From contig CAVWRF010000015.1 in NCBI GenBank assembly GCA_963757325.1, positions 9,010-73,009 of the forward strand: 64,000 bases of DNA. Reading direction: 5' to 3'. Position 1 is the stretch's first letter. The number at the start of each line of letters is the position of its first letter. The position numbers and the translations under genes were made by a program. The notes under the pieces are model-generated. The model saw nothing but the letters and a program-made list of their open reading frames with translations, did not search any database and had not been told where the DNA came from. This document shows positions 8,083 through 33,480 of this stretch, one piece after another. Source of the stretch: Candidatus Melainabacteria bacterium (GTDB taxonomy: Bacteria; Actinomycetota; Actinomycetes; Mycobacteriales; Pseudonocardiaceae).

Positions 8083-8109
8083 GCCTGGTCACGACGCGAG
8101 GAGGGCGTA

Positions 8110-12860: not shown

Positions 12861-13079
12861 CCTTTCTGCACCGTCGTACGGCGCCCGACTGGTTTCGATC
12901 GCCGCACGCGAGATCCGTGTTCGCAGAGTGTTCAGGGGATTTTTCCCACGCGAGCGGGTTCTTACTCGGCTGGCGCTCCGCGGGAGTCGCTCCTCAAGTA
13001 ATTGTTGTCAATCTAGGTCGGCGGCGTCCGGGCTGTCAACGAATCCGCCGGGATGCCCCGTGCGAGAAGTTTCAAACTT

Positions 13080-13087
13080 TCTATATT
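13080..13087 (+). promoter_or_regulatory. TCTATATT box, copy 3 (upstream of the sbnB-sbnA-NRPS operon)
   Basis: Exact 8-mer about 125 nt upstream of ATG 13213, in the divergent halogenase/sbnB intergenic region. Confidence 0.4.
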
Positions 13088-13212
13088 TCCTCTGCCGTTG
13101 CGCATCCGCCCAGCTCGGAAAGTGTGCTGTCAGTGCGGTGTCAGCGGTTCGTCAGTGGCAGGCGCGATTATTGTCCGGTGTCGGAGGTCAGGGAATAGGG
13201 GTTGGCGAGAAC

Positions 13213-14247
13213 ATGTCGATGGCGGAGTCCCGGCCGGTCTTCTCGATCATTTCCGGAGCGCAGATCCATCGTGTTCTGTCCGGACGCGAAAAAAGCATTG
13301 TGGAGGCGATCGCACACACCTACCAGGCGCACGGCGCCGGCGGAACCGTCAATCCGCCGTCGTACTTCCTGCGTTTCCCCGACCGCCCCGGGTCGCGCAT
13401 CATCGCGCTGCCGGCGTCGCTGGGCGGGGCCGACGGGGTGGACGGGATCAAGTGGATCTCCAGCTTCCCCGGCAACATCACCAGCGGGCTGCCGCGCGCG
13501 TCCGCCGTGCTGATCCTCAACGACCCCGCGACCGGCTACCCGTACGCGTGCCTGGAGAGCTCGATCATCAGCGCCACGCGCACCGCCGCCTCCGCCGCGC
13601 TGGCCGCCGACCGGCTCAGCAGGGGCAGGCGACGCCCGCCGCGGATCGGGTTCTTCGGCACCGGCCTGATCGCGCGCTACATCCACCGGTTCCTGGCCGG
13701 CACCGGGTGGGCGTTCGACGACGTCGGCGTGCACGACACGAGCGCCGAGTACGCGGTGCGCTTCGCCGAGTACCTCACCGGCGCGGGCGAACCGGGCCGG
13801 ATCACCGTGCACGACACCGCGGAGGCGCTCATCCGCTCGGCCGATCTCGTGGTGTTCGCGACCACCGCGGGCGCGCCGCACGTGAGCGACCCGTCCTGGT
13901 TCGCGCACCGTCCGCTGGTGCTGCACGTGTCGCTGCGCGACCTGTCGCCGGACGTGATCCTCTCGGCCACCAACGTCGTGGACGACGTGGAGCACTGCCT
14001 GAAGGCGAACACGTCGGTGCACCTCGCCGAACAGCGCACCGGCGGCCGGGAGTTCCTGTCCGGGACGCTGCCCGAGGTGATGAGCGGAGCCGTGACCGTC
14101 GACCACGGCCGGCCCGTGGTGTTCTCACCGTTCGGGCTGGGCGTGCTGGACCTCGCGCTGGGCAGGCTCGTGCACGAGGAACTGCGGCAGGCGGGCGAAC
14201 TGGTGCACGTCGAGGACTTCTTCCACGATCTTCGCCGTTATGGCTGA
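13213..14247 (+). CDS. sbnB: SbnB-like NAD-dependent enzyme (ornithine cyclodeaminase family), Dap biosynthesis
   Basis: SRIIALPASLGGADGVDGIKWISSFPGN...ASAVLILNDPATGYPYACLESSIISATRTAA closely parallels staphyloferrin SbnB as I recall it. Start taken as ATG 13213, inside ORF 12928..14247. Confidence 0.8.
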   Translation: MSMAESRPVFSIISGAQIHRVLSGREKSIVEAIAHTYQAHGAGGTVNPPSYFLRFPDRPGSRIIALPASLGGADGVDGIKWISSFPGNITSGLPRASAVLILNDPATGYPYACLESSIISATRTAASAALAADRLSRGRRRPPRIGFFGTGLIARYIHRFLAGTGWAFDDVGVHDTSAEYAVRFAEYLTGAGEPGRITVHDTAEALIRSADLVVFATTAGAPHVSDPSWFAHRPLVLHVSLRDLSPDVILSATNVVDDVEHCLKANTSVHLAEQRTGGREFLSGTLPEVMSGAVTVDHGRPVVFSPFGLGVLDLALGRLVHEELRQAGELVHVEDFFHDLRRYG

Positions 14248-14262
14248 GCGCCGGGGGACGAG

Positions 14263-15255
14263 ATGCCGGTGATCACCCGCCCCGAGCAGTTCAACGTCGG
14301 CGACCTCTACGTGGCCATGGAGCCGATGTTCGACCTGCCGCTGTACCTCAAGTGCGAGGGCTTCAACTTCGCCGGTTCGGTGAAGCTGAAGGCGGCACTG
14401 GAGATGATCGAGGTGGCGGAGCGGTCCGGCGCGCTGCGGCCGGGCACGACGATCGTCGAGAGCTCGTCGGGCAACCTCGGCGTCGCGCTGTCCATGGTCG
14501 CCGCCAGCTACGGCTACGGCTTCGTGTGCGTCACCGACTCGCGCTGCACGGTCAGCGCTCAGCGGTTGATGCGGGCGCAGGGCGCGGACGTGCGCGTGGT
14601 GACCGAACCGGACGCCGAACGCGGGCTGCTCGGCGCGCGGCTGGCGCTGGTCGGGCGGCTGTGCCGGGAGAACGACAGGTACGTGTGGCTCAACCAGTAC
14701 GGCAATCCGGCGAACTGGGGCGCGCACGCGCGCACCACCGGTCCTGAGGTCCTCAAGGAGTTCCCGGAACTGGACGTGCTGTTCGTCGGCGCCGGCACCA
14801 CGGGCACGCTGATGGGCTGCGCGCGCTACCTGCGCGAGGAGAAGCCGTCGGTGCGGATCGTCGCGATCGACGCGGAGGGCTCGATCACGTTCGGGTTCCC
14901 GCCCGGGCCACGGCTGCTCCCCGGCCTCGGCACCGCGGTGCGGCCGGCGCTGCTGGACCGGTCCTACGTCGACGACGTCGTCCTGGTGTCCGAACTGGAC
15001 ACCGTGCGTGCCTGTCGGACCTTGCAGCGCAACGGTTTCCTGTTCGGCGGATCGACGGGGACGGTGGTCAGCGGTGCGCTGCGGTGGCTGGCCGAGCACG
15101 CGCCCGGTGGTGACGTGACCGCCGTGGCGATCGCGCCGGACCTCGGCGAGCGGTACCTGGACACCATCTACGACGACGAATGGGTGGTCGACCACTTCGG
15201 TGCCGGGGTGCTGGCCCCGGCGGGATCCGGCACCACCACGAGGAGCGATTCGTGA
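14263..15255 (+). CDS. sbnA: SbnA-like PLP-dependent enzyme (cysteine synthase fold), Dap biosynthesis
   Basis: GSVKLKAA (PLP Lys), IVESSSGNLGVALSM, WLNQYGNPANW, IVAIDAEGSITFG, LFGGSTGTVVSGA and IAPDLGERYLDTIYDDEW parallel SbnA. Confidence 0.85.
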   Translation: MPVITRPEQFNVGDLYVAMEPMFDLPLYLKCEGFNFAGSVKLKAALEMIEVAERSGALRPGTTIVESSSGNLGVALSMVAASYGYGFVCVTDSRCTVSAQRLMRAQGADVRVVTEPDAERGLLGARLALVGRLCRENDRYVWLNQYGNPANWGAHARTTGPEVLKEFPELDVLFVGAGTTGTLMGCARYLREEKPSVRIVAIDAEGSITFGFPPGPRLLPGLGTAVRPALLDRSYVDDVVLVSELDTVRACRTLQRNGFLFGGSTGTVVSGALRWLAEHAPGGDVTAVAIAPDLGERYLDTIYDDEWVVDHFGAGVLAPAGSGTTTRSDS

Positions 15256-18200
15256 CCACAGCACAGCGGCGCCAGGTGGCGGCGGACCGGACGGTGTTCC
15301 CGCTGATGGCCGGTCAGGCTGAGATCTGGTACGACGAGCGGTTCTCCGGCGGCACGCCCGCCTACAACTCCGGTGTGTGCGTGCACATCGACGGCCCGCT
15401 GGACGCGGGCGTGCTGGAGGCGTCGGTCCGGCAGTTGGTGGACGAGGCCGAGTGCACGCGGATCCGGTTCGTCGAACAGGACGGCCTGCCCCGGCAGACC
15501 GTGCGACAGCTCCCCACACTGCCGATGGGCTGGCACGACCTGTCCGGCCGGCCGGACCCGGACGCGGCCGCCCGGCGGTGGATCAACGCGGATCTGGTCC
15601 GCCCGTTCTCGATGACCGACTTCCCGCTGATGCGGCTGGCCGCGCTGCGGCTGGGCCCCGAGCGCACCCAGCTCTACCTGAACATCCACCACGCGGTCAG
15701 CGACGGCTTCAGCCATGTCGTGTACTGGCGGCGGTTCGCCGAGATCTACGCCGCGCGCGCCACCGGCGGCGACCCGGGCCGCGGCGCGCTGCCGCCGCTG
15801 CGGCTGCTGATCGAGGAGGAGGAGTCGTACCTGGGGTCCCGGTTCGAGCAGCGGGACAGGGCGTTCTGGCGGGACCGGTTCCCGAAGCCCACCGAGGTGA
15901 CGACGCTGTCCACCCGGTCGCCGGTGGACTCGCTGCCGCGTGAGTTCCTGCGCAGCACCAGCGTGCTGGACGAGCGGATCACCGGCGCGGTGCGCGCCGC
16001 GGCCGCCGGGGCCGGCGTGACCACCGGCGCGCTGCTGATGGCCGCGACATCGTTGTACGTCAACCGGATCACCGGCGCCCCCGACGTGACGCTGACCGTC
16101 GCGGCAGGCGCCCGGATGAGCGCCGCCGCGCGCAAGATCCCCGGCATGACGGCGAACTTCCTGCCGATGACGGTGCGCGTGGACCGTGCCGAGCAGCGGC
16201 CGGACCTGCTCCGGCGGACGTCGGCGGAGCTGGCCGGACTCCTCCGCCACCAGCGGTACCGCGTCGGCGCGATCCGCCGTGATCTCGGCCTGGGGGCCGA
16301 CGACCGGTGGCCGGCAGGGCCGTTCGTGAACATGCTGCCGCTGCTGGTCGCGCTGGACATGGGGCCGTGCGTGGGAACGGTGGAGAACATCACCACCGGT
16401 CTGGTCAGCGACATGATGGTGACCACTGTCGACACGCCGGGCGAGAACCTGCGACTGAACATCAACGGCAACCCCGATCTGTACCACCCGGACGAGGTGT
16501 CCGACCACCTGGCGCGGTTCGGCGCGTTCCTCGGCCGGTTCGCCGGCAGCGCGTCGGACACGCCGGTCGGTGACGTGCCGCTGCTCGGCTCGGTCGAGAT
16601 CGGCCGGTACGACCACATGTCGGCGGGCCCGGTGCGCGAGGACCCGCACCTGAGCGTGCCGGCGGCGATCCGCGCCGTCGCCGCGCAGGACCCGGACGCG
16701 GTCGCGCTGGTCGACGGCCGCGCGGACGACCCGCGCGAGGTGACGTACGGGCAGTTGGTGGCGCGCGCGAACGCGCTGACCCGGCGGCTGCCGGCTGTCG
16801 GGCTGGTCGGCGTGTTGGCCGGACCGGGCGCCGACTTCGTCGTCGGCGTGCTGGGTACGTGGGGTGCCGGCGCGGCGTACGTGCCGCTCGACGTGCGGGC
16901 ACCCGCCGCGCGCACCGCGGCCCTGGTGGCGGACAACGGGATCGGCTGCCTGCTGGTGGACGCGGAACACCGCGAACTGGCGGAGGAGGTCGTCGCGGGG
17001 TCCGATGTGGACATCCTGCTGCTCGCCGACGTCGAGGACGGGGAACTGGCCGCGCTGCCCGACGATCCGGCCGAACTGGCGTACGTGATCTTCACGTCCG
17101 GTTCCACCGGCACGCCGAAGGGCGCGATGGTGCAGCACGGCGGCATGGTGAACCACCTGCGCGCCAAGATCGAGGATCTGCGCCTCGCGTCGACCGACCT
17201 GGTGGTGGCCAACGCGCCGCTCACCTTCGACATCTCCGTGTGGCAGCTCTTCGCGGCGCTGCTGGTCGGCGGCCGGGTGCGGATCGTGCCACGGGAGGTC
17301 GCCGCCGACCCGAACCTGCTGTTCCCGCTGACCGTGCGGGACGGCGGGACGGTGCTGGAGGTGGTGCCGTCGCTGCTGCGCGCCGCGTTGGACTCGTGGG
17401 ACGCGCTGGACGGTGGCCCCCGGCTGCGTGGCCTGCGCTGGCTGCTGGTCACCGGTGAGGCGATGCCGGTCGAGCTGTGCCGTCGGTGGTTCGCGCGCGA
17501 GCCGAAGGTGCCGGTGCTCAACGCGTACGGCCCGACCGAGTGCTCGGACGACGTGACACACGCGGTGCTGACGGCGAAGGACGGCGTTGCCACCACCGCG
17601 CAGCGGCGGGTGCCGATCGGCCGTGCGGTGCGCAACACGGCGCTGTACGTGCTGGGTGACGACCTGTGCGCGGTGCCGCGTGGCGCGATCGGCGAGCTGT
17701 ACGTCGGCGGCTGTGGCGTCGGCCGTGGCTACCTCGGTGACCCGGTGAAGACGTCGGCCACGTTCCTGCCCGACCCGTTCGCCGGCCGGGGAGCGCGGAT
17801 GTACCGCACCGGTGACCGGGTCGTGTGGCGGCCGGACGGCCAGTTGGAGTTCGTGGAACGCCGCGACCACCAGGTGAAGGTGCGCGGCAACCGGATCGAG
17901 CTGGCCGAGGTCGAGGCCGCGATGCACGGGCTGCCTCGGGTGCGCGACGCTGCCGTGGCCGTGTTCGGCGAGTCGGGCAGGCAGCGGCTGATCGGCTACG
18001 TCGTGCCAGCGGGCCCGGCCACGATCGACCTGGAACTGCTGCGCGAACGGCTGGCCGGTGTGCTGCCCGAGTACATGGTGCCCTCGGTCCTCATGACGCT
18101 GCCGGCGCTGCCGCTGACGTCGCACGGCAAGGTGGACCGCAAGGCGCTGCCCGAACCGGAGACGGCGACCGTCACCGCGCGCGAGGGCAGGGGTGCGGAG

Positions 18201-19850
18201 ACGCCGGAGGAGGAACTGCTCTGCCGGCTGCTCGCCGACGCGCTCGGTCTGCCGGTGATCGGGCCGGACGACAACTTCTTCACCCTCGGCGGCGACAGCA
18301 TCATCTCGATCCAGGTGTCCAGCCGCATCCGGCGGGAGGGTCTGCTGGTCACCCCGCAGCAGATCTTCCGGCTCAAGACGCCCGGCGCGATCGCCGCGGC
18401 CGCGAAACCGGTGCGGCCGCTGGCCGTGCCGCGCTCCGAGGACGGTGTCGGCGAGGTCGAGCCGCCGCCGGTCGCCCAGCAGCTACGCGAGGATCTGGCG
18501 CCACTGGGTGCGGACGGCCTGCCGGAGGCCGCTCGCCGCTACGGCCAGTACGTCGTGTTCGAGCTGCCGTCCGATGTGGACGCCGACCGGCTCACGTTCG
18601 CGTTGCAGGCCGTACTCGACCACCACGACGCGCTGCGCATGCGGGTGACCGTGCCGGCGCCGGGGCAGTGGGCGCTGGAGGCGCTGCCGCCGGGTTCGGT
18701 GAAGGCGGCCGACGTGCTCACCGAGACCGATGCGGCGCCGGTACCCGAACTGGCCGCCGCCGCGCAGCGCGGGCTGGACCCGGAGAACGGGATCGTCACG
18801 CGGGTGGTACTGGTGCGCGGTGCGGCTGGCGAGCCGGACCGGTTGCTGTGGCTGGTGAACCACCTGTGCGTCGACGGCGTGTCCTGGCGGGTGCTGGTGC
18901 CGGACCTGCGTGAGGCGTGGCAGTCCGTGCTGGCCGATCAGGAGATCGCGCTGGCCGCCGTCGGCACGTCGTACCGCCGCTGGTGCCGCGCGCTCGGCCG
19001 GAGCGCGGGTTCCGCCGCGCGGCTCGCGGAGTTCCCGGAGTGGCTGGCCGCGGTGCGCGATCCGGGGCCACCACTGGCCGACCGGCCGCTGGACCCGCTG
19101 CGCGACACGTATGCCACCGGGCACTCGCTGCGCCTGGTGCTGCCGCCGGAGATCACCCGGCCGCTGCTCACCTCGACGCCCGCGGACCTGGGCGTCGAGG
19201 TGAACGACGTGCTGCTGACCGCGCTGGGCATCGCCGTCGCCGACTGGCGGCGCCGCAGGGGAGAGCCGGCGGAGCAGGTTCTGGTGGAACTGGAGGGTCA
19301 CGGCCGGGAGCCGATCGCGGAGGAGGACCTTGCCCGCACGGTCGGCTGGTTCACCAGCATCTTCCCGGTGCGGCTGGACGTGTCGGCTGCCGGCGCGGCA
19401 CCGGACCGGGACGACATCTGGGCGGGCGGCACCGCACTGGGCGCGCTCGCCACGGCGAGGCACGCCGTGCCCGACCGAGGTCTGGGCTACGGCCTGCTGC
19501 GCTACCTGAACGCACAGACCGAGACCGCGCTCGCGCGGTTCGCGCCGCCCGAAGTCGGCCTGAACTACCTGGGCTGGTTCACCGCGGGCGCCGGGACGGG
19601 CGCATGGCGGCTGGACGGCGGCAACGCGGTGATCAGCACCGCGACGACCCCGGACATGCCGTTGCGGCACGTGCTGGCGGTCACGCCCGTCACCGAGGAC
19701 CGGCCGGGCGGGCCGTGCCTGGTGGCCGACTGGCTCTGGGCGGGCGAGCTGTTCGCCGACGCCGACGCCGAGGACATCGCGCGCACCTGGTTCCGGGCGC
19801 TGCGCACACTGGTGATCCACAGTGGACACAATGGTGGGGAGACATCGTGA
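15252..19850 (+). CDS. NRPS-1: starter C - A - T - E (module 1)
   Basis: GTGA overlap with the sbnA stop. C domain HHAVSDG. A domain YVIFTSGSTGTPKG, NAYGPTE, YRTGD, PLTSHGKVD (code DIWELTADDK). T domain FFTLGGDSI. E domain NHLCVDGVSWRVL plus ELEGHGRE. Confidence 0.9.
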   Translation: MTTAQRRQVAADRTVFPLMAGQAEIWYDERFSGGTPAYNSGVCVHIDGPLDAGVLEASVRQLVDEAECTRIRFVEQDGLPRQTVRQLPTLPMGWHDLSGRPDPDAAARRWINADLVRPFSMTDFPLMRLAALRLGPERTQLYLNIHHAVSDGFSHVVYWRRFAEIYAARATGGDPGRGALPPLRLLIEEEESYLGSRFEQRDRAFWRDRFPKPTEVTTLSTRSPVDSLPREFLRSTSVLDERITGAVRAAAAGAGVTTGALLMAATSLYVNRITGAPDVTLTVAAGARMSAAARKIPGMTANFLPMTVRVDRAEQRPDLLRRTSAELAGLLRHQRYRVGAIRRDLGLGADDRWPAGPFVNMLPLLVALDMGPCVGTVENITTGLVSDMMVTTVDTPGENLRLNINGNPDLYHPDEVSDHLARFGAFLGRFAGSASDTPVGDVPLLGSVEIGRYDHMSAGPVREDPHLSVPAAIRAVAAQDPDAVALVDGRADDPREVTYGQLVARANALTRRLPAVGLVGVLAGPGADFVVGVLGTWGAGAAYVPLDVRAPAARTAALVADNGIGCLLVDAEHRELAEEVVAGSDVDILLLADVEDGELAALPDDPAELAYVIFTSGSTGTPKGAMVQHGGMVNHLRAKIEDLRLASTDLVVANAPLTFDISVWQLFAALLVGGRVRIVPREVAADPNLLFPLTVRDGGTVLEVVPSLLRAALDSWDALDGGPRLRGLRWLLVTGEAMPVELCRRWFAREPKVPVLNAYGPTECSDDVTHAVLTAKDGVATTAQRRVPIGRAVRNTALYVLGDDLCAVPRGAIGELYVGGCGVGRGYLGDPVKTSATFLPDPFAGRGARMYRTGDRVVWRPDGQLEFVERRDHQVKVRGNRIELAEVEAAMHGLPRVRDAAVAVFGESGRQRLIGYVVPAGPATIDLELLRERLAGVLPEYMVPSVLMTLPALPLTSHGKVDRKALPEPETATVTAREGRGAETPEEELLCRLLADALGLPVIGPDDNFFTLGGDSIISIQVSSRIRREGLLVTPQQIFRLKTPGAIAAAAKPVRPLAVPRSEDGVGEVEPPPVAQQLREDLAPLGADGLPEAARRYGQYVVFELPSDVDADRLTFALQAVLDHHDALRMRVTVPAPGQWALEALPPGSVKAADVLTETDAAPVPELAAAAQRGLDPENGIVTRVVLVRGAAGEPDRLLWLVNHLCVDGVSWRVLVPDLREAWQSVLADQEIALAAVGTSYRRWCRALGRSAGSAARLAEFPEWLAAVRDPGPPLADRPLDPLRDTYATGHSLRLVLPPEITRPLLTSTPADLGVEVNDVLLTALGIAVADWRRRRGEPAEQVLVELEGHGREPIAEEDLARTVGWFTSIFPVRLDVSAAGAAPDRDDIWAGGTALGALATARHAVPDRGLGYGLLRYLNAQTETALARFAPPEVGLNYLGWFTAGAGTGAWRLDGGNAVISTATTPDMPLRHVLAVTPVTEDRPGGPCLVADWLWAGELFADADAEDIARTWFRALRTLVIHSGHNGGETS

Positions 19851-21270
19851 CGCGGTCGGAGAAAGCTGTGACGGGCGACAGGGAACGCGACGTGGCGGAC
19901 GTCGCGCTGACCCCGCCGGTGCAACGGCTGCGGGACCGGACCGGCGTGCTGGACGGACCGGCGCAGCGGCTCGGCGAGTACCTGATCGTGCCGGCGCCGA
20001 AGGGCACGAACCTCGCCGTGCTGACCGAGGCCGTGCGGGCGCTGGTGGACCGGCACGAGGCGTTGCGGCTGTGTCTGGCCGAACCGGTCGAGGGCCTGTG
20101 GTCGGCAGGCGTGCTGCCGCCCGGCGCGGTGCGCGCGGAGTCGTTGGTCAGCAAGGCGCCCCCGAAGGCCGAACCGGCCGAAGTGGCCGCGAAGGCGCGG
20201 GCCCGGCTGGCCGTGCGGGACGGCGTCGTGCTCCAGGCGGTGCTGCTCACCGGACGGCGTGTCCTGGTGCTGGCCCACGAACTGGTCGTCGACGCGGCGT
20301 CCTGGCGGGTGCTCGTCGACGATCTGCTCGCGTGCTGCGCGGACGTCGTCGCGGGCCGTGAGCCGATGGTGCCCGACGTGGCCGTGACCTATCGGGACCG
20401 GGCAGCGGACCTGGCCGGTCAGGCTCGGGCCGCGCGGCGGGTGCGGGAACTCCCGACGTGGACGGAGCAACTCGACCCGGACGCGCGGCTGGTGCCGGGG
20501 GCAGCGCTGGATCCGTTGGTGCACAACGTGTCCGCGCTGCGCCACCACCGGCAGGAGCTGTCCGCCGCCACCAGTTCGGCGTTGCTGGGCGCGCTGCCGG
20601 CGGCGTTCCACGCGCGGACCGAGGACGCGCTGCTGACCGCGCTGGCGCTGGCCGGTTCCGCGCACCGCGGCGAGGCCGAGGCCGGTCGCACGGCCGTGCT
20701 CGTCGAACTGGCCGCGCCGCACGCCGGTGCCGACCGCACGATCGGCCGCTGTGTCACGGGTTTCCCGGTCCGCGTGGACGCCGCCGTGACCTGTGTCGAG
20801 GACCTGGCCGCCGGTGACGCCGATCTGGACGGTGCGGTCAAGCGCGTCAAGGAGCAGGTGCGGGCGCTGCCCGACGGCGGCAGCGGCTACGGCGTGCTGC
20901 GGCACCTCAACCCGCAGACCGGCGGTGTGCTGGCCCGCCGTGGCACGCCGCAGGTGCTGCTGCGCTTCGACGGCGAACTGCCCGCCCCTGTGACCGCCGA
21001 GGCCGACCCGAGGACGCCGGTCAGCCACGTCGTCACCGTGACCGTGACGGTGTGCGACGGCAGGCTGGTCGCGGACTGGGCGTACCTGCCGGATCTGCTG
21101 CCCGGCGGCGGGGAACTGGCCGCCGAGTGGTCGCGGCTGCTGGACCTGCTCGCCGCGCACACCGCGACGCCGCACGCCGGCGGCCGCACGCCCTCGGATC
21201 TGACCGTCTCGACGCTCACCCAGTACGAGATCGAGAACTTCGAGGCCGATCTCGGCCGGCTGCAGGACGT
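19847..21270 (+). other. E* domain: epimerisation-like domain with both catalytic motifs degenerate
   Basis: Motif comparison with the E domain of NRPS-1 immediately upstream (18440-19850). Confidence 0.7.
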
Positions 21271-21442
21271 GCTGTCGCTGTCGCCGCTGCAGAAGGGCAT
21301 GCTGTTCCACGCGGGCATGCACAAGGACGAACTGGACGTCTACCACGTCCAGGTGCTCGCCGACCTGACCGGCCCGCTGGACGCGGGCCGGCTGCGTGCC
21401 GCGGCGGCCGCGCTGCTGGACCGGCACGTGAACCTGCGCGGG
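19847..21442 (+). CDS. NRPS-2, fragment a: degenerate E-like domain (E*) plus the N-terminal part of C2; frame breaks near 21440
   Basis: GTGA overlap with the NRPS-1 stop. E-like fold with [14 protein letters not shown] and VELAAPHAG in place of HHxxxDG and EGHGRE, then [18 protein letters not shown] and [11 protein letters not shown]...[10 protein letters not shown]. Confidence 0.8.
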
Positions 21443-21443
21443 C

Positions 21444-24400
21444 TGCTTCCGCTACAGCGCGACCGGCGAGCAGTTGCAGATCATCCCGGAGTCGGTCGAA
21501 CTGCCCTGGACCGACGTCGACCTGAGCGGCGCGTCAGAGGACGAGCTGGCCGGGTTCGCCGCCGCCGACCGGGACCACGGTGTCGACCTGGCCGTGGCAC
21601 CGCTGATGCGGTTCACGCTGATCCGCACCGGAGCCGACTCGCACCGTCTGTTGTGGACGTTCCACCACATCGTGGCCGACGGCTGGTCCACGCCGATCGT
21701 GATGCGCGAACTGCTGGCCGCCTACCACGCGGGCGCGGGTTCGCTCACCGAGCCGCGTCCGTACCGGGACTACCTGAGCTGGCTGGAGAGCCGGGACGAC
21801 AGGGCCGCCAGGCAGGCGTGGCGGGCCGCGATGTCGGCCATCACCGAGGCGACGCTGATCGCGCCGCACGGCGAACAGACCCCGCCGGTGCGGCCCGAGT
21901 ACGTGTTCGTCGAACTGCCGCAAGCCCTGACGTCCGCCCTCACCGAGTTCGCGCGCGGGCGCGATCTGACCCTGGGCACCGTGATGCACTGCTGCTGGGC
22001 GATCCTGGTCGGCCAGCTCACCGGCAGCAGGGACGTCGTGTTCGGCAGCGTGCAGTCGGGGCGGCCCGCCGACCTGTCCGGTGTGGACGAGATGGTCGGC
22101 ATGTTCGTCAACACGCTGCCGGTGCCGGTGCGGCTGGACCCCTACCGGTCGTTCGCCGAGGTGGCCGCCGGTGTGCAGGACGAGCAACTCGGCCTGACCG
22201 AGCACCAGCACCTCGGCCTGGGCGACATCCAGCAGCTCACCGGTGTCCGCAGGCTGCTGGACACGTCGGTGACCATCCAGAACTACCCGATGGACGTCGC
22301 CGAGCTGAGCGCGATCGTCCCGGACCTCGCGGTCACCGGCATCCGCGCCGAGTTGTCCGGCGAGTACTCGATGGCGCTGCTGGTGCACCCGGGCAGCCGC
22401 ATCCGGCTGCAGTTGGCGTACCGCCCGGACCTGTTCCGCCCCACCGACGCCGAGCGCGTCGCGGAACGGCTGACCGGGCTGCTGGGCACCGTCGTGCACG
22501 ACGCCGACCGGCCGCTGGGCGCGCTCACCACGCTGACCGCCGCGGAGCGGGCCGACATCACCGGCGCGTGGGCGGGTTCGATCGAGCGGCGCAGGGTGTG
22601 CGACGCACCGACGCTGTTCGCCGAGCGTGTCGCCGCCGCGCCGGACGCGCCCGCGCTGAGCTGGACCGGCGGGTCGATGAGCTACGCCGAACTCGACGGG
22701 CGGGCCAACCGGATGGCCCGCGAGATGGTGGCGCGCGGCGCGGGGCCGGACACGATCGTCGCGCTCGTGCTGCCGCGCACGTCCGAACTGCTGGTGTCGG
22801 TGCTGGCCACGCAGAAGGCGGGCGCCGCCTACGTTCCCGTCGACCCGCGGTACCCGGCCGACCGGATCGCGTTCATGCTGGAGGACTCCCGGCCGGCCGT
22901 CGTCGTGTCCACAGTGGATATCGGTGCCGGCCTGCCGGCCACCGGCGCCCGAACGATCCTGGTCGACGACCCGGCCGACACGGCACGCGTCGCGGCACGT
23001 CCCGACGGCGATCTCACCGACGCCGACCGCACCCGGCCGCTGCTGCCGACCGACGCCGCGTACGTGATCTACACGTCCGGCTCGACCGGGCGGCCCAAGG
23101 GCGTCGTCGTGGACCACACCGGATTCACGAAGATGGTGTTCGACCTGATCACGCGGTTCGACGTCGGGCCGGACACCCGGATGCTGCAGTTCGCGCCCTC
23201 CAGCTTCGACGCGTCGATCTGGGAGTGGTCGATGGCGCTGCTCGGCGGCGGCACGCTGGTGCTGACCGACGAACTGAGCAGGCTGCCCGGCCCGGCGCTG
23301 GTCGACCTGATCGCGGAGCAGCGGGTCAACCTGCTGGCCTTCCCGCCCGCGGTGGCCGCCGCGCTGCCCGAGGGCAGCACCCTGCCCGCCGACCTGACCA
23401 TGGTGGTGGCCGGCGAGGCGTGCCAGAAGGAGGTCGTGGCGCGCTGGTCGGACAGCGTCCGGATGTTCAACGGCTACGGCCCGACCGAGACCGTGCTGGC
23501 GGCGACCGCGGAAGGCCCGCTGCACGGCCCGGAACGGCCCGCGATCGGCAGGCCGCTCGGCGCGCACCGGGTCCACCTGCTGGATTCGGCGCTGCGGCCG
23601 GTGCCGGCAGGAGTGACCGGCGAGATCTACGTCAGCGGCGGCCTGGCCCGCGGTTACCTGAACCGGGCCGGTTTCACGGCGACGCGGTTCGTCGCGTCGC
23701 CGTTCGACGCGTCGGGCGAGCGGATGTACCGCACAGGTGACCTGGCGCGCTGGGACGAGCGCGGCGTGCTGCACTACGCCGGCCGCGTCGACGACCAGGT
23801 GAAGCTGCGCGGCTACCGGATCGAACTGGGCGAGGTCGAGGCAGCGCTGCGCGGTGCGCCCGCGGTCGGCGACGCGTCCGTGGTGATCGGCGAGGACCGC
23901 GGCGGCAAGCGGCTGGTCGGCTACGTCGTGCCCGTGCCCGGCGGTGGCCTGCCGGACGTGGATGTGGTGCGCGAACACATCTCCGGTTCGCTGCCCGACT
24001 ACATGGTGCCCGCCGCACTGGTCGTGCTGGAGACGCTGCCGCTGACCCCCAACGGCAAGGTGGACCGCAAGGCGCTGCCCGAACCCGGCGCCGTGGCCCG
24101 CCCGGCCGGCCGGGCGCCCCGGACGCCGCTGGAGGAGACGCTGGCGTTCGTGTTCGCCGACGTGCTCGGCGTCGACTCGATCGGCATCGACGACGACTTC
24201 TTCGCGATGGGCGGCCATTCGCTGCTGGCCACCAGGGTGATCGGCCGGCTGCGGTCGATGCTGAAGCTGGAGGTGCCGATCAGGGCGCTGTTCGAGGCGC
24301 CGACGGTCGCGGGCCTCGCGCCGCGGATCGGTGGCGTGGCAGCGGCCCGGCCACCACTGCGGCCGGCGCCTGCCGGTGAACCGGTCGGGTTGTCGTTCGC

Positions 24401-27400
24401 GCAGCAGCGCCTGTGGTTCCTGGACCGGCTGGAGGACACCGAGGCCGCCGGCACGTACATCGTGCCGATCGTGGTCCGGCTGGCCGAGGCGGCCGACGTG
24501 CCGGCACTGCGCGCGGCACTGGCCGACGTGACGACACGGCACGAGGTGTTGCGGACCGTCTACACCGACGACGGCGGCACGGCCGCGCTGCGCGTGCTCG
24601 ATCCGCCGGCCGAACTGCCGGTCGGCGTCGAACAGGTCGCGGCAGGCGAACTGGACGACGCGCTCGGCGCGCAGGCCGCCGTCGGGCTGGACCTGAACCG
24701 GATGCCGCTGCGCTGCGTACTGTACGAAGTGGACAACGGCGAACGCGTGCTGCTGTTGGTGATCCACCACATCGCGTTCGACGGCGCCTCGATCTCGCCG
24801 CTGGTCCGCGATCTGGGCGTCGCGTACGCGGCGCGGGCCGCCGGGCACGCACCGGACTGGGCGCCCTTGCCCGTGCAGTACTCGGACTTCGCCGCGTGGC
24901 AGCGCGATTTCCTCGGCCGCACGGACGATCCGGACAGTGTCGCCGGGCGGCAGTTGGAGTACTGGCGCGGCACGCTGGCCGGCCTGCCGGAGGCGGTCGA
25001 CGTCACGACCGACCGCCTGCGGCCCGCAGTGGCCCGGTACGAGGGCGAGGAACTGCCGTTCGAGGTCCCGGTGCGGCTGCACCGCGACCTGACGAAGCTG
25101 GCCGGCGAGCTGGGCGTCAGCCTGTTCATGGTGGTGCAGGCCGCGTTCGCGACCCTGCTCACGCAGTTGGGTGCCGGCACGGACGTGCCGATCGGCAGCC
25201 CGGTGTCCGGGCGCGGCGACGAGGCGCTGGAGGATCTGGTCGGTTTCTTCGTGAACACCGTGGTGCTGCGCACCGACACCGGCGGCGACCCGACGTTCGC
25301 CGAACTGCTGAACCGGGTCCGGGAGACCGATCTGGCGGCCTACGCGAACCAGGACCTGCCCTTCGAGCACCTGGTCGAGGCGCTCAACCCGGACCGGTCG
25401 CCGGCCCACCAGCCGCTGTTCGAGCACATGCTGGCGATGACCAGCAGGGATGCCGCGCCGACGACGTCGGCGTTCGGGGCGGTCGAGCCGGTTCCGTTGC
25501 GCAGCGCCAAGTTCGACCTGTCGCTGCTGCTGGACGAGTGCTTCACCGACGGCGAGCCCAGTTCGATGTTCGGTGTGCTGGAGTACCGCACCGACCTGTT
25601 CGCCGGGAGCACGGCGCGGCGCGTCGTGGACCGGTTCCTCACACTGCTGGCGGCCGTGCTCGCCGACCCGCACGCCCGGCTGAGCGCGCTGTCCGCGCTG
25701 CCGGCCGCGGAACTGGAGCACCTGCGTGCGCTGGGCACCGGGCCGGTCGTGGAGCAGCGCTACGAGGGTGTCGTGGCGAGGGTCAGGGCGCACGCCGCGA
25801 TCCGGCCGGACGATGTCGCGATCGTCGACGACGAGGGCACCACCAGCTACGCGCGGCTGGCCGGCAGGGCGAGCGCGCTGTCCCGGCGGCTGGCCGGCCA
25901 CCAGCGCGTCGCCGTGCTGGCACGGCCCGGTGCCGGTCGGGTCGCGGCTGTGCTGGGCGTGCTGGGTGCCGGCGCGGTGTACGTGCCGCTGGACGTGCAC
26001 GCGCCGCGGGACTCGCTCGTCGGCACGCTGCTCGACAGCGGCGCGCGGACGCTCGTCGTCGACGACGACCCCGCCACGCCGATGCGGTGGGCCGATGGGG
26101 TCGAGGTGGTCCGGCTGGGCGATGCCGCCGATCCGGTGGCCCGGCTCGTGCCGGACGTGGACGACCCGGACTCGCCGGTCTCCCCGTCCGGACCGACGCG
26201 CACCGCACTGGTCGACCGGCTGCTGGCCAAGGTCGAGGAGCTGGGGCTCACGTCCGCGGACCGGTTGCTGTACAACGGTTCGCTGTGGCAGCTAGTGGCG
26301 CCGTTGCTGGCCGGCGGCGCCGTGGTGTTCCCTACCGGCGAGCCGTTGGGCGACATCACGGTGCTGCCGCTGGGACCTGCCGCGCTGTCCGCCTTGCTGG
26401 ACGACGCCGTGCTGGACGACGCCGCGCTGGACGCGGGGCGGCTGCGCCGGGTGGTGGTCACCGGGGAACCGCCGGCACCGGATCTGTGTGCCAGGTGGCT
26501 GTCCCGGTTCCCTGGCGTGCCGCTGCTCACCGGCTGTGCCGACGTCACGTCGGCCGTGATCCGCACGCCGCCGCCTGCCGCCACGCGGGTGCCGGTCGGC
26601 AGGCCGGTCCGCAACACCACGCTGTCGGTGCTGGGCGCCGATCAGCGGCCGGTGCCGTGCGGAGTGCCCGGTGAGCTGTACGTCGACGGTGTCGGCGGGA
26701 CCGGTGAACTGGTCCGCTGGGGCGCCGAGGGAGAGCTGGAGTCGCTGGGCCGGATCGACGAGCAGGCGGCGGTCCGCGGGTTCCGGGTCGAGCGGGTCGA
26801 GGTCGAGACCGCGCTGCGCACGCTGCCGTACGTACGGGACGCGGCCGTGCGGGTGGAGGGCCGGGACGGTGACACGTGGTTGTCCGGCTACGTCGTGCCG
26901 GCACCGGGTTCGACGGTGCCGGACACGGCGGCGATGCGGGCGGCGCTCGCCGGGACGTTGCCCGATCACCTGGTGCCATCCGCCGTGCTGGTGCTCGACT
27001 CGCTGCCGCTGACCGCCGACGGAATGGTCGACCGGGCGGCGCTGCCGCCGATCGGGCCGACAGCCGCGCCGGCGGGGCGGCAGCCGCGCACGCCGGTGGA
27101 ACGGTTGCTGTGCGGTGTGTTCGCCGACGTATTGGGCCGTGCCGAGATCGGCATCGACGACGACTTCTTCAAGCTGGGCGGGCATTCGCTGCTGGCGATC
27201 TTCGCGCTGGGCAGGGTCCGTGCCGAACTCGGTGTCGACCTGCCGGTGCGGGCGCTGTTCGAGGCGTCCACGCCTGCCGCGCTGGCCGCGCTGCTGCCCG
27301 ACGCGGGCACGGTGGACCGGCCGCCGTTGCGGCCCGCGCCGCCGCTGGCCGGCGGTGAGCGGTGGCCGCTGTCGTACGCGCAGCGCAGGCTGTGGTTCCT

Positions 27401-30077
27401 CAACAGGATGGCCGAGGGCGACACCGGCACCTACAGCGTCCCGATGGCGGTGCGCTACTCGGGGGTGCCCGATCCGGCCGCGTTCGAGGCGGCGCTGGGT
27501 GACGTCGTGGCACGCCACCAGGTGCTGCACACGGTGTATCCGCAGGACGCGGACGGCGTGCCGCACCAGGTGCCGGTGCCGGAGTTCCGGCCGCGGCTGC
27601 GGGTGCTCGACCTGCCTGCCGCCGACCTCGCCGCCGAACTGGCGCGCGAGGTGGACCGCGGCTTCGACGTGCGGTCCGAGTGCCAGGTGCGGGCCACGCT
27701 GTACCGGCTGGACGACGGCGACTCCGTGTCGCTGCTGGTGTTCCACCACATCGCGCTGGACGGTGTGTCACTCGGCCCGCTGCGCGGGCAGCTCGTCGAC
27801 GCGTACACCGCACGGCTGGCCGGCAACGCGCCGGACTGGGCGCCGGAACCGTTGCAGTACAAGGACTTCGCGGTGTGGCAGCGGGACATGTTCGGTTCCG
27901 GGCGGGACCCGGGCGGCCCGCTGGCCACGCAGTTGGAGCAGTGGCGCGAGGAACTGGCCGAGCTGCCCGACGAACTGGAGCTGCCGCGCGACTTCGCGCG
28001 GCCCGCGGTCAGCGGACACACCGGTGACATGGTCCGCTTCGATCTGGACGCCGATCTGCACCGCGGCCTGGCCGAGCTGGCCCAGCGGCACAACGCGACG
28101 CTGTTCATGGTGGTGCAGGCCGCGGTGGCCGCGCTGCTCACGAAACTGGGTGCCGGCACGGACATCCCGCTGGGCAGCACCGTGGCGGGGCGGGACGACG
28201 AGGCCCTGCACGACATGGTCGGGTTCTTCGTGAACACGCTCGTGCTGCGCACCGACACCGGTGGCGACCCGAGTTTCGCCGAACTGCTGGGCAGGGTGCG
28301 GGAAACCGATCTGGCCGCCTACACACGGCAGGACGTGCCGTTCGAGTTCCTCGTCGAGGCGCTCAACCCGGCGCGGTCGCTGGCGCGGCACCCGCTGTTC
28401 CAGGTGATCGTGCAGTTCACCCACGACGACGGCGAAACCGTCGCCGCCCTGCCCGGCCTGGAGTGCGCCGAGGAACCGCTGTACACCACGCGGCCCAAGG
28501 TGGACCTCGCCTTCGACCTGGCCGAGCGGCGGTCGGCAGGTGAGCCGGACGGCATCGCGGGGGTCCTGGTCTACAGCGGTGACCTGTTCACGCGGGACTC
28601 CGCACGACTGATCGGCGAGCGGCTGACGCTGCTGCTGCGTGCGGTCACCGAGCGGCCGGCGGAGCCGCTGAGCGGGATCGACGTGCTGGAACCGGCCGAG
28701 CGGGACGCGATCCTGGTGCGGCGCAACGACACCACCGTCGCCGTGCCGGACGAACTGCTGCCAGGACTGGTCGCCGCTTCCGTGCGCCGCAACGCCGATC
28801 TGATCGCGCTGCGCGGCACCACGGAGGCGCTCACGTACCGCGAACTGGACGAGCGGGCCGGCCGGTTGGCCGCGACGCTGCTGGCGAAGGGCGCCGGGCC
28901 GGAGACCGTGGTCGGCATCGCGTTGCCGCGCGTGCCGGATCTGGTGGTGGCCGCGCTCGCGGTGACGCGGGCCGGCGCCCAGTACCTGCCGCTGGACCCC
29001 GAGCACCCCGCCGACCGCATCCGCTACATGCTCGCCGACGCCCGGCCGCTGCTGGTGATCACCGACTCGGCGACGTCGGTCGCGCTGCCCGGCGCTGACA
29101 TGCCGCTGCTGCTGCTGGAGGACGTGCCGGCCACGGGCGCCACGGCGCCGTCGGTGCCTGCCGGGCTGGACCCGGAGCACCCGGCTTACACGATCTACAC
29201 GTCGGGTTCGACCGGCAGGCCCAAGGGTGTCGTCGTGCCGCACGGCGCGCTGCGCAACCTGTTGGCCGACATGCGCGACCGGCTCGCGGTCCGGCCGGGG
29301 GAGCGGTTCCTCGCGGCCACCACGTTCGGCTTCGACATGGCGAACCTGGAACTGCTGGTGCCGCTGCTGGCCGGTGCCGAGGTGGTGCTGGCCGACCGGG
29401 CGGCGGTGCGGGACACGCAGGCGCTGGCCGCGATGCTGCTCGCCGAGCGGATCGACGTCCTGCAGGCCACACCGAGCCTCTGGCAGGCGCTGCTGGACGT
29501 GGACGCGAACGCCTTGCGTGGGCTCAAGGTGGTCACCGGCGGCGAGGCGGTCGGCGAATCGCTCGCCGCGGGCCTCGCCGCGGCGGCCCGCTCGGTGCTC
29601 AACGTCTACGGCCCGACGGAGACCACGGTCTGGTCGACGTCGTCCGAAGTGGACACCGAGCGGGCCGGCCCGCCGGCGATCGGCCTGCCGATCGCGAACA
29701 CCCGGGTGTACGTGCTGGACGCGAGCCTGCGGCCGGTGCCGGACCGGGTGCTGGGCGAGCTGTACATCGCCGGTGACGGCCTGGCCCGCGGCTACCACGA
29801 CCGGCCCGGCCTGACGTCGGAACGCTTCACCGCCGACCCGTACGGTCCGCCCGGTGCCCGGATGTACCGCACCGGCGACCTGGTCCGCTGGGGCCACGAC
29901 GGCATCCTGGAGTACGTCGGCCGCCGGGACCACCAGGTCAAGATCCGCGGTTACCGGATCGAACTGGGCGAGGTCGAGGCCGCGCTGCGGACGCTGCCGG
30001 ATGTCAGGGACGCGCTCGTCACCGTCGACGGTGGACGGTCGCGGCTGCTGGGCTATCTGGTGCCGGTACCGGGCACC
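21444..30077 (+). CDS. NRPS-2, fragment b: rest of C2 - A2 - T2 - C3 - A3* - T3 - C4 - most of A4
   Basis: Continues C2 in another frame ([16 protein letters not shown]...[10 protein letters not shown]). A2 has [30 protein letters not shown] (code DAWAVAGLAK). T2 has GGHSL. C3 has HHIAFDG. A3* is degenerate. T3 has GGHSL. C4 has HHIALDG. A4 has [26 protein letters not shown] (code DMLQVGVVWK). Confidence 0.9.
25740..27040 (+). other. A3*: adenylation-like domain lacking all core catalytic motifs
   Basis: [13 protein letters not shown] replaces TSGSTGxPKG; YNGSLW replaces FDxSxW; LTGCADVTS replaces NxYGPTE; GELVRWG replaces YRTGD; PLTADGMVD replaces PLTPNGKVD. Confidence 0.8.
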
Positions 30078-30079
30078 CG

Positions 30080-31338
30080 ACCGACCCGACCCGGCTGCGC
30101 GCACAGTTGGCCGAATGGCTGCCGGAGTACCTGCGGCCCGCCACGCTGACCGTGCTGGACGCGTGGCCGCTGACGCCCAACGGCAAGGTGGACCGGTCGA
30201 AGCTGCCGGTGCCGGACACGGCCGGCACCGACCAGCGTGCGCCGGAAACCGTGCTGGAGGAACTGCTCTGCGGCGTGTTCGCCGACGCGCTCGGCCTGCG
30301 CGAGGTCGGCGTGCTGGACGACTTCTTCGAACTGGGCGGACACTCGCTGCTCGCGCCGGGATTGATCGGGCGCGCCGTGCGGGCCGGGCTGCGACTGGAC
30401 ATCGCCGACCTGTTCACCCACCGCACTGCAGCCGGCCTGGCCGCGGTCGCGGGCCGGCGGCAGGCGCCCGAACAGGCCGCGGCGTGGCGGGGCGAGGCGA
30501 TGGGCAGGGTGTTCGACGACGCGGCGGGCATCGGCGAACTGGATCCGGTGGCACCCGTGCTGCCGATCCGGCCGGACGGCGATCTCGCGCCGTTGTTCTT
30601 CGTGCACAGCGGTGTCGGGTTCGCACTGCCCTACATCGGTCTCGCCAGGCACCTGGAATCCGGCCACCCGGTGTACGGCCTGCAGTCGCCCGCACTGTCC
30701 GGCGATGGCAGGCTGCCCGACAGCGTCGCCGAACTGGCCGACGGGTACCTGGCCCGCATCCGCGAGATCCAGCCGGCCGGCCCGTACCACCTGTTCGGCT
30801 GGTCGTTCGGCGGCCTCGTGGTGCACGAACTCGCCGTCCGGCTGCGGGAGGCGGGCGAGAACGTCGCGCTGGTGGTCAACATGGACGGCTATCCCGAGCA
30901 CGACCAGCCCGCCGATCCGCGCACCGAGTCGGAGATGCTGGCCGGCGTCCTGGAAGTGATCGGGCACGACAGGGCCGGGTTCGAGGGCCGCGAACTCACC
31001 CGGACGACGTGCTCGCCGTGCTGCGTGAGGACGATCATCCGCTGCTCGCGCTGGGCGAGGACAGGGTGCGCCGCATCCTGGCGCTGTCCGACCGGCACGG
31101 GACGCTGGTGCGGCGGTTCACACCCCGGCACTACGACGGCGAACTGCACCTGGTGGTCGCCACGGCCGAACGTGAGGACGCGGCTGAAGCCGCGCTGGTC
31201 GACCGCTGGCGGCCGTTCGTCGGGCGGCTGACCCGGCACGGTCTCGACGTCGGGCACGAGTACCTGATGCACCCGGAGCCGCAGGCATGGCTGGCGGCGC
31301 TGATCGACGAACTGCTCAAGGGCGGCGCGGCCCGATGA
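30080..31338 (+). CDS. NRPS-2, fragment c: end of A4 - T4 - TE (a further frame break near 31000)
   Basis: [39 protein letters not shown], then T4 FFELGGHSL and [11 protein letters not shown]...FGWSFGG. After about 31000 the TE continues in another frame ([15 protein letters not shown]...HLVVAT...GHEYLM) to TGA 31338. Confidence 0.85.
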
Positions 31339-32250: not shown

Positions 32251-33480
32251 ATGACAGCGGAACCGGTCAGCACACCGGCCGGTCCGCGGGTACCGGATCT
32301 GGCCGATCCGCGCACGTTCGTCGACGAGGACGTGCGGACGATGTGGCGGCGGCTGCGGGCCGAGGCACCGGTGTACTGGAACCCGGCCACCGACGACCGG
32401 CCCGGTTTCTGGTCCGTGACGCGCTACGCGGACGTGCTCGCGGTCTACAAGGACAACACGCGGTTCACGTCGGAGAAGGGCAACGTGCTCTCCACGCTGC
32501 TGCGGGGCGGCGACTCGGCGGGCGGCAAGATGCTCGCCGTCACCGACGGCCCACGGCACCGCGAGACGCGCAAGCTGATGCTGAAGTCGTTCTCGCCGCG
32601 CGTACTGGAGCACATCGGCCAGCTTGTGCGCAGGCGCACCCGGCGGCTGGTCGCGGAGGTGGTGGCGCGCGGCGAGGCGGACTTCGCCACCGACGTCGCC
32701 GACCACATCCCGATCAACACCATCGGCGACCTGATGGACATCCCGGTCGCCGACCGGGGCAAGCTCGTCGACTGGAACAACCGCACGCTGTCGCGCTACG
32801 ACGAGGGCGACTCGCAGCTTGAGGAGTGGCTGGCGCGCAACGAGATCCTGCTGTACTTCGGTGAACTGGCCGCCCGGCGCCGCGCGGCGCCGGGCGAGGA
32901 CGTGATCAGCGCTCTGGCCACCGGCCTGGTCGGCGGTGAGCCGCTGTCCGAGGACGAGATCGTCTTCAACTGCTACAGCCTGGTGCTGGGTGCGGACGAG
33001 TCCAGCCGGATGTCGTCGATCGGCGCGGTGATCGCGTTCACCGAGCACCCCGACCAGTGGCGGGCGCTGAAGGACGGCGAGGTCGGTGTCGCGGACGCCA
33101 CGGAGGAGGTACTGCGCTGGACCACGCCGGCCATGCACTTCGGTCGGCGGGCGCTGGAGGACGTGCCACTGGGCGGCCGGGTGATCAGGGCAGGCGACGT
33201 GGTCGCGCTGTGGAACAGTTCGGCCAACTTCGACGAGGACGCGTTCGACGACCCGGACCGGTTCGACCTGGGCCGCAAACCCAACCGGCACGTCGCGTTC
33301 GGCCACGGCCCGCATTTCTGTATCGGCGCGTTTCTCGGTCGCTCCCACGTTTCCGCCGTGCTGGAGGCATTGCGCGACCAGGTCGCCGAAATCGAGCTGC
33401 GCGGTGAGCCGCGGCGCCTGTATTCCAATTTCGTGCACGGTTATCGCGGCCTGCCGGTCGCATTCACCCCGGAACGTTGA
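32251..33480 (+). CDS. Cytochrome P450
   Basis: 409 aa from ATG 32251. I-helix [15 protein letters not shown] (ExxR) and the heme loop [14 protein letters not shown]. Confidence 0.9.

Follow-up and report, generated by a model that had tools for sequence, protein, structure and literature searches.

A catalytically degenerate epimerisation domain at the start of an NRPS subunit in a split actinomycete assembly line

Dead epimerisation domains at subunit junctions

LgrA, of the linear gramicidin synthetase, is a nonribosomal peptide synthetase (NRPS) with the domain order F-A-T-C-A-T-E* (A, adenylation; T, carrier; C, condensation). Its inactive epimerisation (E) domain, E*, lies at a subunit junction and has been regarded as an evolutionary remnant (PMC10510592, PMC11824870). 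A domain that resembles it, and that we also call E*, opens the second of two NRPS genes (NRPS-2) in a stretch of 64,000 nucleotides from contig CAVWRF010000015.1 of the assembly GCA_963757325.1 (hereafter, the window), directly after an NRPS (NRPS-1) that ends with an E domain of its own (E1). Both dead domains belong to the E clade, lack epimerase function and stand at a subunit junction before the next C domain. In LgrA, however, the dead domain is C-terminal on the upstream subunit, comes after its own carrier and an achiral Gly, and is the sole E domain at the junction, whereas E* of the window is N-terminal on the downstream subunit, has no carrier, faces a live E1 upstream and is demonstrably under purifying selection. 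In the literature that was found, a tandem, N-terminal, degenerate or second E domain arranged like this one is not described, LgrA being the only related case.

The locus can also be compared with the E-COM-C units of active assembly lines. In BacC, COM forms a compact fold that lies sandwiched between the E and the C domain, makes substantial contacts to both and orients them for short peptidyl carrier protein (PCP) shuttling; a COM, in cis or in trans, has been reported with every integrated E domain, and its main role is proposed to be that of a scaffold (PMC12402864). The succession of E*, TPSD motif, amphipathic linker and DCL-type C domain (C2) seen in the window recalls modules 4/5 of BacC (9rde), and C2 has the C domain of 9rde as its best relative. 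In the known E-COM-C units and in TycA-TycB1 trans pairs, the E domain is active and natural splits fall inside COM, between a donor helix and an acceptor hand. Here, in contrast, the two subunits part upstream of an entire additional E domain. E1, which has no COM at all, runs against the rule that integrated E domains always come with one, while E* obeys it. To our knowledge, the COM split is the only type of docking so far reported at E/C subunit junctions.

A further system to be considered is the X domain of the teicoplanin NRPS Tcp12 (4tx2/4tx3), which, like E*, is a non-catalytic member of the C superfamily with a degenerate HHxxxDG motif, and acts, or is proposed to act, as a platform for protein-protein interactions. 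It differs from E* in its clade (X as opposed to E), in its position (T-X-TE, where TE is the thioesterase, as opposed to N-terminal) and in its P450 partners, which are the Oxy enzymes, while the cytochrome P450 of the window resembles P450sky, of a type that binds the PCP.

The elements around the junction are as follows:

15180..19850, + strand: NRPS-1, C(starter position)-A-T-E (Pfam, open reading frame, G+C at third codon positions (GC3) in frame 0)
18450..19847, + strand: E1, presumably active epimerisation domain (NHLCVDG and EGHGRE motifs)
19836..19850, + strand: gene junction, with ribosome-binding site GGGGAG at 19836-19841, NRPS-2 start GTG at 19847 and NRPS-1 stop TGA at 19848-19850
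19847..21199, + strand: E*, N-terminal carrier-less E-fold domain (Pfam, PDB matches, AlphaFold2 (AF2)/Foldseek, motifs)
21200..21310, + strand: cis COM-like E-to-C linker leading into the C1 motif of C2 (pN/pS, alignment)
21278..22790, + strand: C2, condensation domain of the DCL type with HHIVADGWS at 21663-21689 (in the window, a +1 frameshift interrupts it)

A degenerate E domain maintained in six species

NRPS-1 contains the Pfam domains Condensation, AMP-binding and PP-binding, followed by a second Condensation stretch that corresponds to E1. The catalytic-His motif NHLCVDG (18858-18878) and EGHGRE (19293-19310) are both present in E1, in agreement with a previous interpretation made from the DNA letters only (the sequence-only reading). 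The domain ends with GGETS*, that is, inside the GGxTPSD motif, and thus without a TPSD/COM tail; GGxTPSD at the end of an E domain is the normal lead-in to the COM linker. The C-terminus of NRPS-1 extends 13 residues past the last helix. The GTG start of NRPS-2 overlaps the NRPS-1 stop codon (GTGA), five bases after the ribosome-binding site, and the coding frame passes from 0 to 2 exactly at 19847 in the GC3 analysis. The last codons of NRPS-1 are atypical and low in GC3, as at a true gene end. Both the translational coupling and the contrast between the two domain ends, with TPSD on E* (GGRTPSD, 21179-21199) and none on E1, had been noticed in the sequence-only reading and are borne out.

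Residues 1-455 of NRPS-2 belong to the Condensation superfamily (PF00668, 4.7e-21). The domain proper starts at about residue 15, and the N-terminus aligns with the T-E linker of homologues in which the two NRPSs are fused; no carrier domain precedes E* in NRPS-2. Where HHxxxDG is expected, E* has HELVVDA (20276-20296), the second His being replaced by Glu (Glu144), and where EGHGRE is expected it has VELAAPHAG (20702-20728). The WFT and FNYLG motifs are remodelled. An E-like domain of about 470 residues, carrier-less, marked by HELVVDA and opening NRPS-2, is what the sequence-only reading had described, and motifs, PF00668 and PDB matches agree with it.

All the relatives of E* point to the E clade. 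In a sequence search of the PDB, the best solved relatives are the E domains PvdL E2 (2e-34) and TycA E (4e-18), followed by those of TycB3, BacC and GrsA; the ten matches with E <= 0.01 are all PvdL, TycA, TycB, BacC or GrsA chains, and there is neither an X domain nor a teicoplanin NRPS among them. The 80 nearest genomic relatives are likewise all E domains. The AF2 model of E* (pLDDT 88.2, pTM 0.85) predicts a complete C/E fold with both lobes. When this model is compared with the PDB by Foldseek, ranks 1-13 are all occupied by E-domain chains (E 1e-31 to 1e-25, TMq 0.72-0.77), including the BacC E-COM-C and TycA/TycB1 structures. The first match outside the E domains, at rank 14, is AmbE CmodAA, a dehydrating C-type domain, and the teicoplanin X domain (4tx3, 4tx2) comes at ranks 31 and 37 (E ~1e-17, TMq 0.60), level with ordinary C domains. 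Thus, both its sequence and its predicted fold place E* among the E domains and not among the X domains of glycopeptide synthetases; it is, as its motifs indicate, a degenerate member of the E clade that has lost the catalytic residues.

A genome scan using one genome per GTDB species recovered five loci that carry E* at 68-74% identity over all 474 amino acids, every other match being at or below 42%. They belong to Streptomyces sp. NPDC097640, Streptomyces sp. NPDC005876, S. aurantiacus, S. fumanus JCM 4477 and Streptomyces sp. MZ04. All five share the end point of NRPS-1 and the GGGAGA...GTGA junction, and their NRPS-2 is one intact open reading frame of more than 3812 codons. The database representative of these NRPS-2 orthologues found by an exhaustive HMMER search, P0015, has 3918 residues. 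A word-indexed protein search with E* returned generic E domains only, at 37% identity or less.

The first motif reads HELV[VA]D[AT] in 6/6 E* sequences, with the catalytic His replaced by Glu throughout. The second is hypervariable: the orthologues have DGYERE, DGHGRE, AGHGGR, DGHPRE and DGYGPE, so that the position of the EGHGRE Glu is Asp in four of them and Ala in one, and it is deleted in the window. The AAPHAG of the window was read correctly from the letters, yet it results from a net in-frame deletion of 21 nucleotides seen only there, not from simple substitution, and in the orthologues the motif is merely relaxed, not erased. Restored motifs, which according to the sequence-only reading would speak against degeneracy, are not seen at the first position, where all six sequences have Glu; the orthologues match the second motif loosely. 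In the 75 other nearest E-domain loci, the first motif is never HE (66 have HH, one, the Actinocrispum locus L006, has NH, and eight give no pattern match) and EGHGR is present in 59, with no match to the second pattern in 16. Upstream modules or a T domain always stand ahead of the E domain in these 75 loci. Among the best 150 representatives of 1.8 billion proteins, only the E* orthologue cluster opens with such a domain: other apparent N-terminal E domains turned out to be truncations at contig edges (P0066 lies 181 nt from a contig end) or T-E fragments (P0040, P0053 and P0094 start inside T domains). Neither a frameshift nor a stop codon is found within E* in any of the six genomes. Judged from these alignments, the loss of both catalytic residues is a stable, clade-specific feature of E*.

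Selection on the domains was estimated as the ratio of nonsynonymous to synonymous changes (dN/dS) by the Nei-Gojobori method, for the 15 pairs that the six orthologues form, with bootstrapping over columns:

E*: dN/dS 0.34 (95% bootstrap 0.29-0.40)
E1: dN/dS 0.33 (95% bootstrap 0.27-0.39)
C2: dN/dS 0.31
C3: dN/dS 0.34
A2: dN/dS 0.18
A3, the internal control for a dispensable domain: dN/dS 0.63 (95% bootstrap 0.54-0.72)

Since the six species parted, E* has been under purifying selection as strong as that on E1, C2 and C3, and it is not decaying. The constraint is unevenly distributed: it is loosest near the former catalytic motifs (0.4-0.46) and tightest (0.2-0.36) over the C-terminal lobe and the stretch that joins it to C2. 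In E1 the reverse holds, the minima lying at HHxxxDG and EGHGRE. The first 20 residues of NRPS-2 are poorly conserved (dN/dS 0.78).

The COM-like linker, which is amphipathic and follows the GGRTPSD of E*, shows the tightest constraint of all (pN/pS 0.2-0.28) and shares 50-59% identity with the corresponding E-C linker in the fused homologues. The best PDB matches of C2 are all C domains that follow E domains, namely BacC C5 in E-COM-C (9rde, 1e-64), then SrfA-C, TycB1 and PvdL C3, while the LCL domain TycC6 scores only 2.6e-18. The motif LSPxQxGMLFH of C2 also differs from the LSxAQxRLWFL of C3 and C4. Being of the DCL type, C2 is expected to require a D-configured donor, which E1 can make.

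Origin of E* and its possible function

The next-best relatives of E* are found in Pseudonocardiaceae, in Actinocrispum (L006), Umezawaea (L007) and Actinosynnema (L008 and L009). These loci belong to the same cluster family: SbnB-like and SbnA-like genes precede the NRPS in 4/4, a halogenase is present in L006, L007 and L009, and in L006 the NRPS is followed by an ABC-2 permease and a P450. Their NRPS is one polypeptide, C1-A1-T1-E-C2-A2-T2-C3-A3-T3-..., collinear with NRPS-1 plus NRPS-2 and 45-65% identical to them per domain. It has a single E domain, with HH or NH and EGHGRE, joined directly to the COM linker and C2. Its A3 is intact and shares its specificity code with A1. The E domain of the fused homologues is 51-54% identical to E1 and 38-40% to E*, and E1 and E* are only 33% identical to each other; among all candidates, the six E domains nearest to E1 are also the six nearest to E*. 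Their losses are complementary: E* retains the ancestral segment ...LRHLNPQT lost in E1, and E1 retains EGHGRE...RTVGWFTS and PDMPLRHVLAVTPVTEDRP, lost in E*. Moreover, E1 stops where a duplicated unit would stop (GG) and E* opens where it would open, in the T-E linker.

Since the fused homologues carry a single E domain, E* probably arose by a tandem duplication of E together with a gene fission in a fused ancestor. The ancestor would have been one polypeptide, C1-A1-T1-E-COM-C2-..., as in Actinosynnema, Umezawaea and Actinocrispum today. In a Streptomyces lineage, a segment of about 1.4 kb encoding E would have been duplicated, and a stop codon, a ribosome-binding site and a start codon would have formed at the duplication junction. 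After the fission, NRPS-1 would have kept T1-E1, with a live catalytic site and no COM tail, and NRPS-2 would have kept E*-COM-C2; E* would then have diverged fast before coming under stable purifying selection. The duplicated E domain proposed in the sequence-only reading is therefore probable in the sense of a diverged duplicate from the E lineage of this assembly line, but it is not recent, given the 33% identity and the presence of the split in six species.

The interpretation that we favour, as probable but far from assured, is that E* is a dead paralogue left by this duplication and fission, and retained in two roles, as the E part of an E-COM-C scaffold and as a docking platform for NRPS-1. 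Having no carrier in cis, E* would have had no need of its epimerase chemistry, which became redundant and was lost. Its body would be kept as the E half of a rigid E-COM-C unit, which gives the donor side of C2, a DCL-type domain, its orientation; the COM scaffold model (PMC12402864) explains why an E body should be kept beside C2. Neither the C-terminus of NRPS-1 nor the first 20 residues of NRPS-2 leave room for a conventional docking pair, which makes E* the likeliest docking surface. It could serve as a landing platform for NRPS-1, either with T1 bound as a pseudo-partner or through contact with E1 itself, and docking would bring the D-configured acyl-aminoacyl-S-T1 to the donor site of C2 in trans. 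Of the docking or recruitment platform suggested in the sequence-only reading, a non-catalytic scaffold and docking role is thus retained as the best, inferred, explanation, and P450 recruitment finds no support. A more ambitious version is distinctly less probable and put forward only tentatively: E* would be a whole-domain docking module, born of duplication, which captures T1-E1, passes the D-intermediate to C2 and replaces the COM split, and the freed NRPS-1 could also load T3, the carrier that follows A3.

Several observations weigh against the favoured interpretation. In neighbour-joining trees, E* has a long branch; 55/100 bootstraps make it the sister of nearly all E domains, and 27/100 join it to the cluster family. 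Because of that long branch, neighbour joining with 100 bootstraps leaves the origin of E* undecided, and, as distance trees do not join E* with E1, the duplication is deduced from similarity ranking and collinearity. Conservation and position are the only observations from which the scaffold and docking role is drawn. The E-COM-C geometry of NRPS-2 is putative: the AF2 model of residues 1-897 (frameshift-corrected) has a pTM of 0.54, with pLDDT below 50 for residues 453-499 and much of C2, for which the alignment lacked depth, so that COM and C2 are modelled at low confidence. Glu144 and the remodelled RTVGRCTSGFPVR are conserved, which may mean a new catalytic or ligand-binding role. Finally, with three frameshifts and a gutted A3, the NRPS-2 copy of the window may be inactive.

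Among the other explanations, one is that E* is a neutral relic, a redundant duplicate that has not yet decayed. Its catalytic degeneration, the drift and partial deletion of the EGHGRE region in the window and the description of the LgrA E* as a remnant would all fit, but a dN/dS equal to that of active domains and clearly below the value for A3 in the same gene, the absence of frameshifts and stops in six genomes and the confidently predicted fold make this improbable. We give the same low credence to neofunctionalisation, in which E* would have acquired a new catalytic or substrate-handling activity with Glu144 in place of His, for instance in trans-loading of T3 or in modifying the side chain of a carrier-bound residue. 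In its favour, the six orthologues share HELVxDA and the remodelled RTVGRCTSGFPVR and RLRFxGEL motifs, the first structural match outside the E domains is AmbE CmodAA, and the appearance of E* coincides with the decay of A3 in the same clade. Motif conservation is, however, weak evidence among only six sequences at 70-80% identity; moreover, the EGHGRE Glu is Asp, Ala or deleted among close orthologues, and the regions of the catalytic motifs are the less constrained parts of the domain. The split might be taken for an artefact, with a sequencing error interrupting one open reading frame or with E* as a mis-assembled E1 repeat; the window does have frameshifts elsewhere, NRPS-2 having three and the ABC ATPase gene one. 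The orthologues already refute this: the overlapping stop and start with their ribosome-binding site recur in six independent genome assemblies, codon usage falls to non-GC3 codons at the NRPS-1 terminus, and an E1 and an E* only 33% identical are not collapsed or mis-assembled repeats.

The analogy with X domains, drawn in the sequence-only reading, concerns the P450 gene of the cluster:

32269..33480, + strand: P450sky-type cytochrome P450 (Pfam p450; PDB 4l0e/4pwv/4pxh (P450sky), 1e-155)

E* would in that case recruit this P450, or the halogenase, to a carrier-bound intermediate. In favour of this, E* belongs to the C superfamily, its HHxxxDG is destroyed, it adjoins a carrier-bound intermediate and the P450 gene lies in the cluster. 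In skyllamycin biosynthesis, P450sky is the beta-hydroxylase of carrier-bound amino acids. In its co-structure with PCP7, the carrier domain is recognised directly (PMC8857579), and the P450 of the window, as a homologue, would be expected to bind the PCP in the same way. An orthologue with 70% identity lies directly downstream of the fused, E*-less NRPS of L006, which points, indirectly and by analogy, to an access of the P450 to the carrier-bound peptide that is independent of E*. The 13 E-domain chains that precede any X domain in the Foldseek list and the lack of X-domain chains among the PDB sequence matches at E <= 0.01 speak against the analogy as well, as does the location of E* at a subunit N-terminus, with the TE about 3400 residues downstream, and not in a T-X-TE arrangement. 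Taken together, the P450sky homology, the E*-less orthologue and the structural ranking make an X-domain-like role very unlikely.

The locus offers a natural experiment on an open question in the NRPS field, the purpose of the E-COM-C unit: a working E domain has no COM, and a dead one has kept its COM and its contact with a DCL domain, held by selection in at least six species. It documents, with A3 as internal control, the splitting of an assembly line by domain duplication and complementary loss. COM swapping has worked poorly at D-residue junctions. A docking platform of this kind, if real, would provide a new, portable way to split NRPSs at such junctions.

The rest of NRPS-2 and of the cluster

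The intact 3918-residue P0015 matches the window in four frame segments by tblastn. One of the intervening frameshifts lies in C2 and was missed by the sequence-only reading, about 170 nt past the region with which that reading dealt, at a GGG run (21440-21442):

21444..31332, + strand: NRPS-2 remainder, A2-T2-C3-A3(dead)-T3-C4-A4-T4-TE (tblastn, Pfam)
21434..21443, + strand: frameshift 1 (frame 2 to frame 0), inside C2, CTGCGC-GGGC-TGC as against CTGCGC-TGC-TGC in four orthologues
30069-30090: frameshift 2, in a CCCGAC-rich repeat
30992-31005: frameshift 3, at ACCCGG, where the orthologue protein ...DLTPDDV... implies ACCCCGG
33925-33930: frameshift 4, in the ABC ATPase gene, in AAGAGAA

All four frameshifts fall between 21.4 and 33.9 kb, and none was seen in the non-cluster genes (about 25 kb), whose Pfam matches are full-length. 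NRPS-2 of the window was considered as an old pseudogene and rejected as such, its dN/dS against the orthologues not being raised; the frameshifts therefore represent either a recent inactivation or sequencing errors.

A3 (~25800-27100) has lost 76 residues in the window compared with the orthologues, has Met in place of Lys517 and lacks the SGSTGxPKG, NxYGPTE and YRTGD motifs. The relaxation affects both the window branch and the other five orthologues (dN/dS 0.53 and 0.70). In the Streptomyces clade, T3, C3 and C4 are constrained while A3 is relaxed or destroyed, so that T3 is probably loaded in trans. With code positions derived against a GrsA reference, A1 and A3 of the fused homologues share the specificity code DIWEVTADDK, and A1 of the window has DIWELTADDK; A1 is thus possibly the trans-loader of T3. 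The NRPS fission and the decay of A3 coincide, and a link between them is a matter of speculation. If there is one, fission would have freed NRPS-1 as a mobile subunit, and loading of T3 by A1 would explain why A3 decays throughout the clade.

The window as a whole is a high-GC (~70-74%) actinomycete biosynthetic cluster, with the following gene order:

First part: two SARP regulators, a stand-alone A-T didomain, a type II ketosynthase (KS) and chain-length factor (CLF), and two FabA-like dehydratases
Middle: a tryptophan halogenase, an ornithine-cyclodeaminase-like gene and a pyridoxal phosphate (PLP) enzyme, and the two NRPS genes
End: an ABC-2 permease, the P450, an MbtH-like gene, the ABC ATPase, a flavin reductase and an O-methyltransferase

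The ornithine-cyclodeaminase-like and PLP genes we take to be an SbnB/SbnA-type pair for 2,3-diaminopropionate (Dpr). In the window, the SbnB-like gene (13053-14247) is flanked by the halogenase and the SbnA-like gene. An SbnB-like gene occurs in L006-L009 too, and none is found at that position in the five Streptomyces loci (about 3950-4400), which makes the window an outlier of its clade in gene content. The stand-alone A-T didomain (3821-5929, - strand) has a derived code, DMTAVGEVGK, unlike that of any of the four in-line A domains; it may carry a substrate for the halogenase or the P450, or act as a trans-loader. The type II KS, the CLF-like protein and the two FabA-like dehydratases (8083-11202) are encoded upstream of an NRPS that opens with a C domain. 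By analogy with skyllamycin-type lipopeptides, this combination of KS/CLF, dehydratases and starter C domain fits a polyene or cinnamoyl-type acyl starter. Neither an acyl carrier protein nor a ketoreductase was located, no dedicated follow-up having been made. No product name for the cluster was found in the literature beyond one rejected candidate, the enamidonin/autucedine/olenamidonin cluster (Phe, Gly, two Dpr), whose NRPSs have 2183 and 2416 residues and a different residue order.

The small MbtH-like gene (~33490-33721) lies between the P450 and ABC ATPase genes and is GTGA-coupled to the latter. The ABC ATPase gene (33718-34684) starts in frame 1, encodes a Walker A motif, GPNGAGKT (33826-33849), and continues in frame 2. 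In the genome scan, seven Streptomyces loci (L040, L041, L051, L054, L063, L067 and L070) encode free-standing T-E didomain proteins of about 600 residues with HHLAxDSxSW and HLEGHGRE motifs, which, to judge from these motifs, may be trans-acting epimerases.

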